Below are positions 8,833 through 62,500 of a stretch of DNA of 64,000 nt, in pieces. Every line of letters starts with the position of its first letter. Within the stretch, counting starts at the first letter, position 1. A model generated the notes under the pieces. The model made no database searches. It saw nothing but the letters and a program-made list of their open reading frames with translations, and was not told the origin of the DNA. Both the position numbers and the translations under genes were made by a program. Location of the stretch: NCBI GenBank assembly GCA_054600435.1, contig BAAIJX010000026.1:62001-126000 (forward strand). Reading direction: 5' to 3'. Source of the DNA: Neophaeotheca triangularis. Its lineage: Eukaryota.

Positions 8833-10431
8833 TCAAATCACTCTAGCAGCCTCCCCACCGATACCCTCCTCCTCAGCCCTCCTCTTACCCCTACCTAACC
8901 CACCCTCACCCACCCCCATCCTCCTCGCCACATACTTTTGCGCTACAACACCTACGGCCAACTGCAGCGTCTCCTCCATCCACTCGGCAACCCACTCTCG
9001 CGGGTCCAGACCACCACTTTCCAGAATTTCGCGGATGGACTCGGGAAGCTCTGTGCCCTTTTCCGGCGAAGCGTCGAGCCAGTTGGCCCAGCGCTGCGGG
9101 AATGCTTGCGAAAGCGAATAGAAGGAAAGACTGTGGAGCGGGTCGTGGAGGTAGACGGCGAAGGTTATGAGCTCTTCGGCCTCTTCTTCTGGATCTTGCA
9201 CACCGCCGCTTTCCTTACTCTCTTGCCCCTCACGCGCATCCGCCGCGAAGAGGGAACCGTCCGCTGTATGCTGGATTGCCTGGATGGCGAGGAAGATGTC
9301 GCTTGAGCGCGTGGGGTTGCTCGAGTTCAGGGATTCAGTAGCCTTCTTGGCAGCCTCTTCCACGCCGCCCTGACGGTCGAAAAAGTCTTTGGCGTAGCTC
9401 TCGGCGCTCACGCGGGCTAGGCGACTGCCTTCTTTCAGGCCGGGAACCGCTCCTAAACCGCGTTCGGCGGTGCCTGAAGCTGAGTCTCGCCACCAGGGTC
9501 CGTCGCTCCATCCAGTGCCTGATGAGCCTAGCACGCCGCCGCGGTAGCCTTGCGCTTCTGAGGTCGAGCGGGCGCGGCTTTCGCTGCCGCGTTGGAGGAC
9601 GAGGAGTTCGCCGCCCTCGACTTGCGCCATGACGCGCTCGAAGGTGCTGTAGATGAGGGGGTCGAGGGATGGGTAGCCGTGAATGTCGTGGGTGGTGTGG
9701 ATTTGAAGACGTTCGTGGGCGGAGATTGGAGGGGCGATGTGCGAGATGATGTTGGTGAAGGTTGGCAAGGCTCGGGAGCGGAGATCGTCGGAGAGAGATT
9801 GGAGGTTATGGATGTTGAGGTTTGACTGTAGTTGTGAGGCCCATCGTTGCGCTTCTTCGTTGCTGCGGATGTCTTTGGCTATGTTCTCGGCTTGTTTGCG
9901 AGCCGCTGTCGCTACTGAAGCGAAGGAGCCCCACCAGCCTCCTCCACTGGACTGTGGTACTGCTGGAGGAGTCGCTTCAGCTTCAGCGGCGGACTTGCTG
10001 AACTCTGGCTTCTCCTTCTCTTCTGCGGCGGGGGTGACGCCCTCGTGATATCCTCGTGCGCTCTCCCCGCTCTTCCTGGCCTGCGAGCCGGTCCCAGCAG
10101 CTGCGGGATGTCCGGACAGTCTATCTTCGCTGTTCCTCGCACTACCTTGACCACTGGAGGCAGGGGTATGGCTCTTCGCAGCGCTGTTGGTCGAGCTCGA
10201 GAGTCTAGGTGTAGATGGCCGGGATGCGTTCGGGCGTGGTGCGAGCTGAGCTTGCAGGTCCGCGAGAGGGTCTTCTTCCTCTTGCTGAGCTGGCTTCTTC
10301 TCGCCATTCGATGTTTTTGATTTCGCCTTGGTTGTGGATTTGGCGCCCGTCTTCTGTGCTTGCGGCTGCTCGTCGACGCCGAGAGAGTCGAGCTGTGCTA
10401 AAAGGTCCTCGTCGTCCTTGCGTGGTGCCAT
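8833..10431 (-). CDS. MTC1: Maintenance of telomere capping protein 1 (Mtc1)-like
   Basis: MAPRKDDEDLLAQLDSLG start, GGGWWGS, APPISAHERLQIHTTHDIHGYPSLDPLIYSTFERVMAQVEGG, DPREWVAEWMEETL..AVGVVAQKYV. Recognised from family memory. Confidence 0.8.
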   Translation of the reverse strand: MAPRKDDEDLLAQLDSLGVDEQPQAQKTGAKSTTKAKSKTSNGEKKPAQQEEEDPLADLQAQLAPRPNASRPSTPRLSSSTNSAAKSHTPASSGQGSARNSEDRLSGHPAAAGTGSQARKSGESARGYHEGVTPAAEEKEKPEFSKSAAEAEATPPAVPQSSGGGWWGSFASVATAARKQAENIAKDIRSNEEAQRWASQLQSNLNIHNLQSLSDDLRSRALPTFTNIISHIAPPISAHERLQIHTTHDIHGYPSLDPLIYSTFERVMAQVEGGELLVLQRGSESRARSTSEAQGYRGGVLGSSGTGWSDGPWWRDSASGTAERGLGAVPGLKEGSRLARVSAESYAKDFFDRQGGVEEAAKKATESLNSSNPTRSSDIFLAIQAIQHTADGSLFAADAREGQESKESGGVQDPEEEAEELITFAVYLHDPLHSLSFYSLSQAFPQRWANWLDASPEKGTELPESIREILESGGLDPREWVAEWMEETLQLAVGVVAQKYVARRMGVGEGGLGRGKRRAEEEGIGGEAARVI

Positions 10432-11569
10432 GTTGATGGATTGAAATTGCAACTGGATATCGGGAGCTTCTCGAGGATCTCACTAATGGGCAAACTACTA
10501 GTACTCGAAAAGACAAGGAGAATGCCCGTTCAATGGCATCGCAGTCGCGCAGCTGGCTTGCTTGACGTTACACAGCTCCTTGAGGTCAAAGCTTCTTTCG
10601 GTAGGTGAAGCCGAGGTCAGTGTCACGGCCTTATCGATGCAAACGAAAAGATCTATTGTATCAATCAACTAACACTGAATTGATTCTGAAATCACCAGAA
10701 TTTTGTGGACGACATGCTGCAGGTCGAAAGCAACTTGCTCGAACCATGGTCCAACCACCCTGTAATGCAATCAGAGGCAGTGATCTTCAATTCGAAAGAG
10801 TCAACTTTCACGTTAAACAGCTTGCAATATAGATTCAAGTAGTTCAATCAACCATACCATTCTGCGAAAGCAACTCCAGGCCACTATTTAGTCTCGAAGA
10901 AACGCTGGAAAGTGGTCGCATCTGGGATTGACGGCTCTATGTTTCCTGGAGTGTAAGGAGGAGGAAACTATTCTAGACGAACTGCAGACGATGTGTGGCG
11001 ATTATACAGCGAAGCGAATGTAAGCCCGTCCTACCCGTAGAGCGTTCAATACAACATTCGTTCGATTCTCATGGCCGCTGAACAGCATGGAAGTCGTGAA
11101 AGATTGTTGTGAAATCCAGACGATCACTCAAGTGGAGAGGTCATGGCACCGTGATTGACTAGATAGAAGAGCCTGAACGATGCAACTTGGGGTGAGCCCA
11201 GGGTGAACATCGAAGACTGTACATTCGTCTTTGGCCGGGAAGCAATCACATCACTAAGCCTAGTATCCGCTCTACAGTTTCGGCCTCGCATCGAGCATGT
11301 AGACCGCGATTCTGGCGAACCTCACTCGATAGATATTACCTTCGCGAGCCTCTACAGAGCCTTTTCGCAAGCGAGGTAATTGATAGATATTCGATTGGCC
11401 CCTCTCGTTCGCTAAAGTTTCAAGGGTCTTGACTAAATGCTTTTGATGGTTCTGTCAGGCCAGAAAGCATTGGTTGCGGACAACAACAACCAATAGCCAT
11501 TTTTCCTATAGGAAGCAAAAGAATTAAAAGTGAGAGGGGTACAAAATAACAGCAAAAAAAAAGAGATGT

Positions 11570-11735
11570 TGAAGACGGTGAGACTCGAACTCACGAGGAT
11601 TGCTCCACTAGTAATCCATTTTCAGCACAGTTTGCATTGCCTGAAACTAGCGCCTAGGGGAAAGTTGTTAGCAACTTCCTAGTATGTGGCAATGAGATGT
11701 GGGGAGAAGTACCATAACCACTCGGCCACGTCTCC
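11570..11735 (-). tRNA. tRNA-Leu(CAG) with two introns: 59-nt GT-AG intron 11654-11712 (D-arm) and 26-nt canonical intron 11614-11639 (37/38)
   Basis: Spliced sequence GGAGACG TG GCC GAGTGGTTAT GGC G CTAGT TTCAGGT ACTAG TGGAGCAATCCTC GTGAG TTCGAGT CTCAC CGTCTTC A (81 nt). All stems pair; long variable arm; A73; A-box TGGCCGAGTGG; B-box GTTCGAGTC; T9 terminator at 11554-11562. Confidence 0.92.
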
Positions 11736-12563
11736 TGAGAGATAAGGTTGAGAGAATTTTGTGTTTTTGGTATATGATTGCTGAATTCTCTTGGGATAGA
11801 ACACGATACGCACGGATTCGAGAAGTGGACCATGGCAAGAAGTGGGTACAGTCAGTACCTCTTCAAAGAAATCAAAGCATCTTGGAAGCGTCCGATGAAG
11901 GATGACCCCCCAGACGGCTGGCCATGATACTACTATTGTACCTGATCGCTGGAAGGCTTCTAATGGGCTGTCTCTGTCCCACACGAATCCGAGACACGGT
12001 CAGTACCCGCTCACAGGTCACAACACATCGCATTACGTTTGCGCGGGGGAACGACTACCTACGTACGGACTACCTCCCCGGACAACCTCCCGTTCTCCCT
12101 TACATGCCTGTTCATCTTCATCTCACATCGCGGCTCGTCTGTGGTCTTTTCTCCTTTCGAAGCACCACTGCCATGCTTGTCAATTAATTGGTCCTTCGCA
12201 GCAACGAAAACTTTAGCGAGGACTAGCGAATAGAGATAAGTATGACCTGACTAGGCATATTTCCTGCCTTATCTCCAAAGTGGATTTTACCACGCCACAG
12301 GGTTGTCTGCTCTCTTTTTTTTTCGCGCAATGATCCTCGCTCATATACAGTGAGCTCTCATAGCTTTGATATTCCCAAGACACTTCTACAAATTATCCCC
12401 CAAGAGCTAGAAGGAGGTGTAGCCGGTCGCATCCTAACTCAGAGCTCCAACGTTATTAGGCGACGATCCAAGCTTGCGGCGGCGTGTCGTCTGACCTCCC
12501 AACATCAGCTGTGCAGCACAGTCTCAGATCCTAGGAGAGCTCAGGCCCCCACATCCAGCCATA

Positions 12564-59576: not shown

Positions 59577-62500
59577 TCAAGCATCATCATCGGTATCCGG
59601 CGGGTGCGGTGTGCCCTTTGGCGAGTTCAGCCACTCAATATGCCTCAGCCGTCTCCTAACCTCACGCTCCTTCTGCTGCGCGCGAGTCAACTTGGTCTTC
59701 TTCTTCTTCGCCTTGAACTTCATCTCGCCCTCATCGCCGCTCTGCGCCGGAGTGCCAGTGGCAGAAGAGACATTGGAAGAAGCGACAGCGCTGCTAGCAA
59801 GGCTGGGGGTGCCGGGAGCGCCGCGAGCGGGAGTGCTGGCGCCGCTGTCGCCGCCGTCACCGAAGCGGCCCGCGTCGATTGCGAGGTAGCCTTTTTGCGT
59901 GAGGCGGCCGTTGTCCACGTGCCACTGTTCGGGGCAGAGGGCGCCGACAAATTCTTCGTTGTGGGAGATCATGACTACACCGCCCTTCCAGTCGCGGATG
60001 GCGACGGCGAGACCGCCGAGGGAGTCACGGTCGAGGAAGTTGGTCGGTTCGTCCAAGACGAGGAGATGAGGGTTGTTCCTGATTGCGACGGTCAGTAACT
60101 TTCGAAGTCGGCGAAAAGTAGACAGATGGGAAAGACATACCACATAGCACCCGCAAGCACAACCTTGACCTTTTGTCCACCAGACAGACCGGAGATCTCG
60201 TTGTGGTTGGCAATCTCCGGGTCCAAGCCGACATCCTCAAAGTGCTTGGAGATGACCTTGGGCTCGAGAGTCCTGAAACCCAGACCCTCTCTGCTAGCCT
60301 CGTGGTCGTCAAACTCTTGAATCAACTTCTGGTAACCTTGCTCCATAAGAGTCTCTCTCGAGATCATGGTGTTGTTCTTGGGAAGGAGACCGATCCACTT
60401 GACCTCGTACTGGAAAGTCTTCTTGTACTTTTGACGACCGATGAGCGCCTCGATGCGCTTCGGGCCTTTGCCATCGCCGATGTCGATGTGCTTGTCCATC
60501 TGAGCTTGGTCTTCGCTAGTAAGGACACGCGTTTGCTTCATGAGCACTTCGCGGTCGTCACCGTTGGCGTAACGCCACTGGAGGTACTGGTTGGGCGTCT
60601 TCTCCATGTGCATTTCAACGTGCTCAAGCGCGTGCTGCTTAATGTAACCGATACGCAAGTTGGGATGCTTCTCGACCTTGCCAATCTGGGGCACGACCTC
60701 ACCGGTCAAGACCTTGATGAGGGTGGATTTGCCGGCACCGTTGGGTCCGATGATGGCGACACGGGAGGAGAGCGAAAGGTTGCAAGAGACGTCTTGAAGA
60801 TTAGGCTTCTCAGTGCCGGGGTAGGTAAAGGTGCAGCCCGACATGCGCAGAATGGAGCGGGTGTTGGACTTGACGCCGGTCAAGATACCCGGAGGAGGGA
60901 ACTTGAACTGCACCTGCGTGGCAGAGAGAGTGTAGTAAGATTTGGCTTCAGGCTTCTGCTTGACAAATTCGGACAAGTTACCCTTGTAGCGGATGAGCTT
61001 CTTCTGCTCGTAGTGGTAGATGTCGGTGCAAACTTCGTCGAGGAAACCGGAGTCGTGCGAGACGATAAGGGAGGTGATCTCGGTGTGAGTCTTGAGGTAC
61101 TCCTGCAGCCACTTGACATTGGCGACATCCAAATGGTTGGTAGGTTCGTCGAGCAAGAAGACGTCGGCGCGCATCAACATGGCGCGAGCCAAGGCGAGCT
61201 TCATCTTCCAACCACCGGAGAGAGAGCCGACCTTTGCGTGTTGGCGACCTTCAGGGCCGGAGGTAAAGCCGACTTGATCTAGAACGTCCGAGATACGGTC
61301 CTTGCCCTCATTCTGGAGCTCGGGGTCCTTAAGACAGTATTCCAAAATGGTGAGGTCGGCATCTTCGCCTTGGTTGTGCTCGACAAAGCACGTCCTGACT
61401 TCACTTTGAGGCGGGAAACCTTCAAGCTTGCCGTTGGCGATGGAGCGCATGAGCGTGGACTTGCCAGCACCGTTGCGGCCGACAAGTCCGTAGCGGTGAC
61501 CCTTTAGCAATCTCAGGTTGGTGTGCGACAGCAGAAGCATTCCTCCGTAACCGAGTGAGAATACAGCGTTGACAATCTCAGTCTCACCATCGTCGACCTT
61601 GATGGGCGCGCCGAATTTGCGGACATCCTCGTCCACGAAGAACTTGTGAATGGCCTCGCCCGTCGCCTCTGCCTTCTCGCTATCCATCAACGATTGCAGG
61701 TAGGGCGTGCTGTCGGACACGATCCGGTCAAGCTCGCGCTGGTTGACGACCTCAGCCACCATGTCGGAAATGTAGATCTTGGCCAACTTCCACACTTCCG
61801 CGTCGCCAGGGTAGTCCTGCATGCCGCCGTTCTGCTTGACCTCCTTCTCGAGCACGGCAAGCACGTCTTCGCGGGAAGTCTTGGAGACAGCGTTGAAAGT
61901 CTCCTTGTCGCCGTTCTGTTCCCCTTCGCCCATGGCCTTGATCATGACATCCAGAGCTCTTTGTCCAATCTCGCGCACTTCCGGGAGAGACGCACCGTCC
62001 TTGACAGCCTGAACACCAGGCTTCAACTTGGGCAAGAATGTGCGGGCTTCTACCGGGTCGTGGACAAGCTTCGTCAAGTTCTCGACCACAACGGCAGTCT
62101 GGCGCAAGACTTCTTGAGCGGTGGTAGGAGTGTTGAGGGCGCGCTCCAAAAGAGGTGTGAGGAGTGCGAGCACAGGGGAGGTGACGACAGTGACGAAGGT
62201 TGTCTGCGAGAGAGCGTGAATGGCCTTGCGCTGCGCCTCTGTGCTGGGATCTTCCATGCTCTTGACCAACAAAGGTATCCGCGGCTCAATATCGTCATTT
62301 TGTAGCAGAGTAGTCAGGCTGTTCATCGCCTTCACGGCCTGCTTAGAGACCTCAGTCTTCAAGTCGTGCATGCCTTGCTCGACTATGGGAATCAAGCTCT
62401 CGAGCTTCTTGCCCATGGCCTCACGCAGCACGTCCTTGTTCTTCTCAACTTCTCTGCTCTCCATTCCAATCTTCGCCTTGTCCGCCATGCGACCAATCAG

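Follow-up and report, generated by a model that had tools for sequence, protein, structure and literature searches.

How many splicing systems does a single tRNA need in order to mature? In teaching, the introns of tRNAs are kept apart from those of mRNAs, as separate worlds each served by its own enzymes, and it is this separation that may be put in question by a gene for tRNA-Leu(CAG) within the stretch of DNA analysed here, a window of 64 kb. The gene carries two inserts, and a preliminary description had presented it as one tRNA that needs two different splicing machineries. As we read the sequence, we are rather probably dealing with a functional nuclear gene for tRNA-Leu(CAG) whose precursor contains two unrelated introns, one of them, in the D arm, being spliceosomal. 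The idea of two machineries has gained support by comparison, as the signals recur in four other genes, while the part of it that concerns the RNA itself is still something that we infer.

[quoted passage not shown]

The gene is read on the minus strand, from 11735 to 11570, and is made up of three exons (23 + 14 + 44 = 81 nt) and two inserts (Table 1). A sensitive Rfam scan of the 701 bases between 11300 and 12000 matched the tRNA family RF00005 over the whole extent of the gene with 33.7 bits (gathering score 29, E 3.3e-05), in an alignment that accommodates 61 inserted nt in the D region and 30 in the anticodon loop. When the 59 nt of the D-arm insert were cut out in silico, ARAGORN called an 81-nt tRNA-Leu(CAG) with a 26-nt intron at 37/38; the extent originally given for the gene is exact.

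Table 1. [quoted passage not shown]
Feature	Position	Strand	Remarks
Whole tRNA-Leu(CAG) gene	11570–11735	minus	166 nt; Rfam RF00005, and ARAGORN after in-silico removal of the insert
Exon 1	11713–11735	minus	acceptor 5' strand, U8, G9, D-stem 5' strand, D loop, to G23
A box	11718–11728	minus	starts at gene base 8, in exon 1
D-arm insert, putative spliceosomal-type intron	11654–11712	minus	59 nt, between G23 and G24; from sequence signals
Exon 2	11640–11653	minus	G24, C25, G26, anticodon-stem 5' strand, loop to G37
Anticodon CAG	11641–11643	minus	in exon 2
Canonical tRNA intron at 37/38	11614–11639	minus	26 nt; ARAGORN intron call
Exon 3	11570–11613	minus	U38, anticodon-stem 3' strand, variable arm, T arm, acceptor 3' strand, A73
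B box	11582–11590	minus	gene base 146, in the T arm, exon 3
T9 run, likely Pol III terminator	11554–11562	minus	7 nt past the tRNA 3' end

With both inserts removed in silico, the joined exons have the make-up of a eukaryotic nuclear class II tRNA-Leu, with four stems and a long variable arm of 13 nt, and the conserved U8, A14, G18 G19, U33 and T-loop bases are all in place. All 21 of the 21 stem pairs are standard, G2:U71 and G13:U22 included, in agreement with the earlier statement that no substitution in the exons disrupts a stem. The gene also has A35, G37 and the discriminator A73, which section 9 of one paper gives as the leucine identity elements (PMC11342251). To judge by its A box, its B box and the T run downstream, the locus could serve as a Pol III unit, and it is free of an internal terminator, the longest T run inside the gene being 3.

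That standard finders would overlook or misname such a gene had been foreseen, and this is what happened. In its default mode ARAGORN reported no tRNA in the 64-kb window; with introns allowed, it miscalled the 166 nt as a tRNA-His(GTG) with a 73-nt intron. Whole-window Rfam scans, both at the gathering score and at E<=1, listed no tRNA at all, and a second tRNA was not found in the window by any scan.

Of the two inserts, the one in the anticodon loop is readily placed. Canonical eukaryotic tRNA introns lie at 37/38 and are removed by TSEN and Trl1, and an anticodon helix lengthened by the intron is the usual look of a eukaryotic pre-tRNA. The 26-nt intron is of this kind in both its position at 37/38 and its pairing with the anticodon loop: ARAGORN puts it after G37, exactly where it had been proposed, and in the minimum free energy (MFE) fold of the whole 166-nt precursor its CTGAAA (11620–11625), already noted as complementary, does pair with TTTCAG in the anticodon stem-loop, so that the anticodon helix becomes longer. 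Set against canonical 37/38 introns in general, the intron itself is ordinary, the only unusual point being the presence of a second intron beside it.

The gene sits within 2.1 kb of divergent intergenic sequence, upstream of a same-strand gene for an MTC1-like protein whose nearest Atlas clusters are mainly ascomycete. Elsewhere, the window encodes cactin, XLF, a forkhead protein, an EF3/New1-like protein and several intron-split ORFs, and its host is a filamentous fungus, probably an ascomycete. CUG makes up 114 of the 575 leucine codons in 11 long ORFs. When CTG was read as X in the EF3-like gene and the product aligned with yeast New1, leucine stood opposite 7 of the 13 aligned X, alanine opposite 1 and serine opposite none; CUG is an ordinary, well-used leucine codon in this fungus. 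A budding yeast of the CUG clade was also considered as the host and rejected, in view of the cactin, XLF and forkhead genes, the intron-split ORFs and a neighbour that is MTC1-like and not TRM1, and of CTG facing leucine, never serine, in the New1 alignment. That the gene might exert regulatory control over CUG decoding is pure speculation.

Two further observations concern the window and its host. The window contains two full-length 5S rRNA genes, at 1191–1310 on the minus strand and 2150–2269 on the plus strand, 840 nt apart and scoring 84.4 and 85.9 bits in Rfam. In a marine metatranscriptome (X4, with 0.07 of words shared), contigs with one difference each were found for 9731–10044 and 10351–10501; they match the MTC1-like gene together with the 70 nt that precede its start codon, covering parts of neighbouring genes only. 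X4 was the one RNA run that the search returned, and the tRNA gene is covered neither by its contigs nor by those of two further runs, X3 and X5. Their near-identity indicates that this fungus or a very close relative was present in that marine sample.

The D-arm insert and its counterparts in metagenomes

What, then, is the second insert? It interrupts the 3' strand of the D stem with a sequence that starts with GTACTT (11707–11712), carries the branch motif GCTAAC at 11667–11672, with the branch A at 11668, 14 nt from the insert end, and continues with a pyrimidine tract to a terminal TAG at 11654–11656. Owing to a GG repeat there are three equivalent cut registers, and only one of them, 23/24, yields GT..AG. 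The insert thus has the motifs of a U2-type GT-AG intron, namely GT, CTRAY near the end, and YAG. The usual base at position +5 of a U2-type 5' splice site is G; in the window gene it is T, and the site is weak. Plausible introns elsewhere in the window, obtained with a noisy ORF-joining heuristic (too noisy for a frequency table of 5' sites), are 51–68 nt long, start with GTRNGT and have CTRAC or CTRAT 6–24 nt before YAG; the D-arm insert seems to be like them in length, branch motif, branch distance and YAG end, and differs from them at +5. One of these introns was checked by homology: with 62 nt (60079–60140, GTATGT..CTGAC..TCAG), it coincides with a break in the EF3/New1 alignment.

Our comparison genes all come from one pattern scan of metagenomes, in which the A-box region up to position 23 and G24–G26 followed by YTCAGG were fixed, with 40–70 free bases in between. 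The pattern therefore prescribes the CAG anticodon and part of the exons; under the 24/25 reading described below, its GCG also fixes the last G of the insert, and the GT, the A of the AG and the branch motif are unselected. The scan returned 33 loci, most of which are 5' parts of bacterial class II tRNAs or coding DNA with a chance downstream match, and five of which resemble the 5' parts of eukaryote-type Leu(CAG) genes in which the D arm carries an insert. The full GT..CTRAC..YAG signature is found in 4 of the 33 (L019, L021, L031 and L033), which are the four intact-looking eukaryote-type genes, and is absent from the other 29 pattern matches. The inserts of the four start with GTACGT, GTTCGT, GTACGT or GTGCGC, carry ACTAAC, GCTAAC, GCTGAC or ACTGAC at 8–12 nt before the end and terminate in CAG or TAG. 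A search for the signature in full (end of exon 1, GTNNGT, CTRAY, AG, start of exon 2) had zero hits in a prokaryote genome collection and zero in viral contigs.

Three of the four genes, L021, L031 and L033, also have a non-GT intron at 37/38, of 58, 62 and 34 nt, respectively. Once the D-arm insert is cut out in silico, ARAGORN takes L021 and L033 for tRNA-Leu with the anticodon intron at 35/36 and hence the anticodon CAA, where the canonical placement at 37/38 gives CAG; L031 becomes a tRNA-Ser(cga) through the same kind of intron placement. L033 adjoins fragments of an AA14 lytic polysaccharide monooxygenase (LPMO), a family that we take to be fungal. The fourth gene, L019 (minus orientation, bases 736–950), is a circularly permuted tRNA-Leu(CAG) gene, in which the 3' half is followed by a 7-nt linker, the 5' half and, 15 nt after G37, a T7 run. 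Its variable arm and, at 24/25, its D arm each carry a 56-nt insert of the form GT..ACTAAC..TTTTCAG; once these two are taken out and the halves put back in order, ARAGORN recognises an 82-nt tRNA-Leu(CAG). Pfam and Atlas searches gave no informative match as to the taxon of L019.

All four genes have their GT-AG register at 24/25, shifted by one base from the 23/24 of the window gene, and in all five metagenome inserts (the D-arm inserts of the four and the variable-arm insert of L019), as in the plausible local introns, position +5 is G. Within a comparison that rests on five genes only, all of them pattern-selected, the D-arm insert would appear to belong to a recurrent class, of which no fewer than four diverged tRNA-Leu(CAG) genes from metagenomes carry a member at 24/25; given the one-base offset, homology between the window insert and the inserts at 24/25 is no more than a possibility. 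As the window gene has T at +5 and all five metagenome inserts have G, the window copy could be a decaying member of this class.

Some traits of these loci may be recorded in passing. The wobble pair G2:U71 of the acceptor stem (11734 and 11571 in the window) is common to all five tRNA-Leu(CAG) genes, and pairs 3–7 covary. Downstream of L021, L031 and L033, at 20–24 nt past the tRNA end, there is a GC-rich hairpin followed at once by T5. A further locus, L009 (minus orientation, at about base 1494), has the 5' part of a Leu(CAG)-like tRNA and, in its D arm, an insert of 42–44 nt that lacks CTRAC and in which the D stem was not restored by any GT-AG register, and the available contig DNA contains no 3' half; it may have arisen by decay from a gene of this class.

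Selection on the exons and competing explanations

Are the insert-bearing genes maintained as tRNAs? The closest pair, L021 and L031, is identical at 75 of 77 exon bases, compared with 32 of 46 in the D-arm insert and 47 of 62 in the anticodon intron (79 of 108 for both introns together; Fisher p 4.8e-06 for exons against both introns), and with 61% identity in the upstream and 75% in the downstream flank. Moreover, both exon differences fall into a single compensatory pair, C28:G42 to U28:A42. Between L033 and L021 the exons differ only by four compensatory acceptor-stem pairs and one change from G:C to G:U, and the flanks of L033 are unalignable with the others, at about 40% identity. Across the five genes (the window gene, L019, L021, L031 and L033), 10 of the 21 stem pairs show compensatory double changes, and non-standard combinations occupy 4 of 105 stem cells, all of them G13:A22, a mismatch that a passage of PMC11342251 describes as common in yeast tRNA-Leu. 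In the D-arm inserts of the four metagenome genes, GT, CTRAC and YAG are kept at an interior identity of 47–70%. The compensatory evolution of the exons in these four insert-bearing genes argues that they are kept as tRNAs, and that the insert must be removed.

This bears directly on the possibility that the window gene is a pseudogene: there would be several Leu(CAG) copies, this one having been put out of action by 59 inserted nt whose splice-like signals arose by chance or came along with the insertion, and it would be transcribed little or not at all and yield no mature tRNA. In eukaryotes, when an insertion is seen in the D or T arm, the gene mostly has many synonymous copies besides and is considered a pseudogene, according to a passage of PMC4090602; the window gene lacks G at +5 of its 5' site, and L009, with an insert in which no GT-AG register restores the D stem, indicates that decayed copies exist. 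Against a dead gene stand the 21 stem pairs, the identity bases, both boxes and the terminator, all of them intact, and against a dead class the compensatory changes in the four other genes, which would be unexpected there. A second strain (X2) speaks in the same direction: its tRNA gene has no indel and a T run 1–2 longer than T9, whereas the adjacent intergenic DNA has suffered indels and a 40-nt deletion. X2 differs by 8 substitutions over 11566–11947, a stretch wider than the exons. A contig joining across the D-arm insert, as would come from a paralogue without it, was not found in X2, in a search that short tRNA matches may escape. We therefore regard the pseudogene explanation as unlikely overall; for the insert-bearing class it appears unlikely from the covariation, and for the window's own copy it is possible.

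The X2 data have a further peculiarity. Over 11333–11594, X2 is represented by two different contigs, one of which carries the 40-nt deletion (11436–11475), with a T run that is 1 or 2 longer; this suggests two haplotypes or a mixture.

Could the D-arm insert be excised without the spliceosome, by the tRNA splicing endonuclease acting independently of the mature domain, or by another nuclease together with a ligase? Protein enzymes do remove D-arm introns in some eukaryotes, with RT-PCR on nucleomorph tRNAs among the evidence in passages of two reviews (PMC4090602, PMC3978253), and Table 1 of the latter lists a 56-bp green-alga intron without the central helix of the bulge-helix-bulge motif. 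We searched the junctions for this motif, defined as two 3-nt bulges around a 4-bp helix with a geometry that follows review text, and the 4-bp central helix was present in 0 of the 11 equivalent registers of the five genes, the best reaching 3 of 4 pairs. Furthermore, the conserved GT, the CTRAC at 8–14 nt from the end and the YAG would mean nothing to an endonuclease, and we consider such a route very improbable.

Little probability likewise attaches to the insert being a recent introner-like or reverse-spliced copy, neutral or harmful, or to the tRNA gene lying inside a Pol II transcript that owns the intron: short non-coding introner families are described for fungi and algae in part of PMC11146597, the divergent intergenic setting upstream of the same-strand MTC1-like gene would suit a Pol II transcript, and the D-arm insert of L033 holds a T5 run equal to that gene's presumed terminator, which fits badly with simple Pol III transcription there and argues against plain read-through; but neither the 64-kb window nor the 33 metagenome loci contain a second copy of the 59-nt insert (a weak test without the whole genome), the finding of such inserts at one and the same site in diverged genes speaks for age and not for a recent landing, and the T9 terminator and the A and B boxes of the window gene fit a Pol III unit.

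The explanation that we favour is thus a working gene with two unrelated introns, which suggests the following course of maturation. Pol III would transcribe the gene, using the A and B boxes within it, as far as the T9 run. The spliceosome would excise the 59-nt D-arm insert (GT..CTAAC..TAG, G23/G24) as an mRNA-type intron, and the tRNA splicing endonuclease and tRNA ligase would deal with the 26-nt intron at 37/38. A point against this scheme is that mRNA-type genes, when transcribed by Pol III, generally give RNAs that are spliced poorly. As to the order of the two splicing steps, we infer that spliceosomal excision probably comes first, because the D stem and the L-shape would be fully formed only after loss of the D-arm intron, and because Sen54 contacts the D arm as well as the acceptor stem and so positions the catalytic subunits, as set out in parts of PMC4090602 and PMC3978253.

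Relation to known systems and significance

By analogy, the closest known kind would be the mRNA-type introns in fungal non-coding RNA genes, with U6 of Schizosaccharomyces pombe as the Pol III precedent. The single U6 gene of this yeast is transcribed by Pol III and its intron is removed by the spliceosome, and mRNA-type introns also occur in the U1, U2 and U5 snRNA genes of Rhodotorula and in ascomycete rDNA, as related in passages of PMC5855946. Common to these cases and ours is a GT..branch..AG arrangement within a structured gene not transcribed by Pol II, in which the signals are kept and the interiors are not. Unlike U6 and the other snRNAs, a tRNA is no component of the spliceosome, and reverse splicing near the active site cannot explain how the intron originated. 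The tRNA gene is further set apart from the fungal non-coding RNA genes by a second, protein-spliced intron in the same gene, and by the fact that splicing is predicted from sequence here.

Non-canonical D-arm introns, like tRNA genes that contain two or three introns, are documented in Crenarchaeota, in Cyanidioschyzon merolae and in the nucleomorphs of cryptophytes and chlorarachniophytes, where they depend on, or are discussed by way of, the bulge-helix-bulge motif (passages of PMC4090602 and PMC3978253). Our gene resembles them in combining a D-arm insert with a 37/38 intron and in being overlooked by standard finders; it differs in that the motif is absent and spliceosomal features are conserved, and a fungal host for such introns is not described in those passages. 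The case most similar in size is the permuted tRNA-Ser(TGA) gene of Ostreococcus lucimarinus, with a 56-bp intron at 27/28 that is marked 'no H' in Table 1 of PMC3978253. It shares with the genes described here the short size class of mRNA introns and the lack of a bulge-helix-bulge helix, and with L019 also the permutation, L019 having inserts of 56 nt; tRNA, position and lineage are different, and the part of PMC3978253 concerned does not call the 56-bp intron spliceosomal. Finally, the Ascoideales, yeasts that read CUG as serine, retain an ancestral tRNA-Leu(CAG) with a D loop of 11–12 nt and mutated conserved bases (in the account given in a part of PMC11342251). The isoacceptor is the same and the D region is likewise odd, and the Ascoideales gene is conserved although its role is doubtful; but while only a few bases have been added there, the exons of the window gene are canonical, its 59-nt insert carries splice signals, and CUG faces leucine.

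A full-text literature search, with subscription journals mostly outside its scope, returned no report of a spliceosomal intron in a tRNA gene. If our reading is correct, tRNA is to be added to the few products of Pol I and Pol III in which mRNA-type introns occur, and this one provides a natural substrate on which to follow the action of the spliceosome on a Pol III transcript. Whether the genes compared here represent a conserved class of spliceosome-dependent tRNAs, which would extend over various fungi and, as a permuted gene, to another eukaryote, and be defined by an obligatory mRNA-type intron in the D stem beside an ordinary tRNA intron, we see as evenly balanced. In such organisms, a CUG-reading tRNA-Leu would depend on the spliceosome as well as on the tRNA splicing endonuclease. 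Where a genome annotation lacks a tRNA-Leu(CAG), it may hide genes of this kind, which would explain some of the 'missing' fungal tRNAs, and a tRNA that passes obligately through the spliceosome would join the worlds of tRNA introns and mRNA introns.
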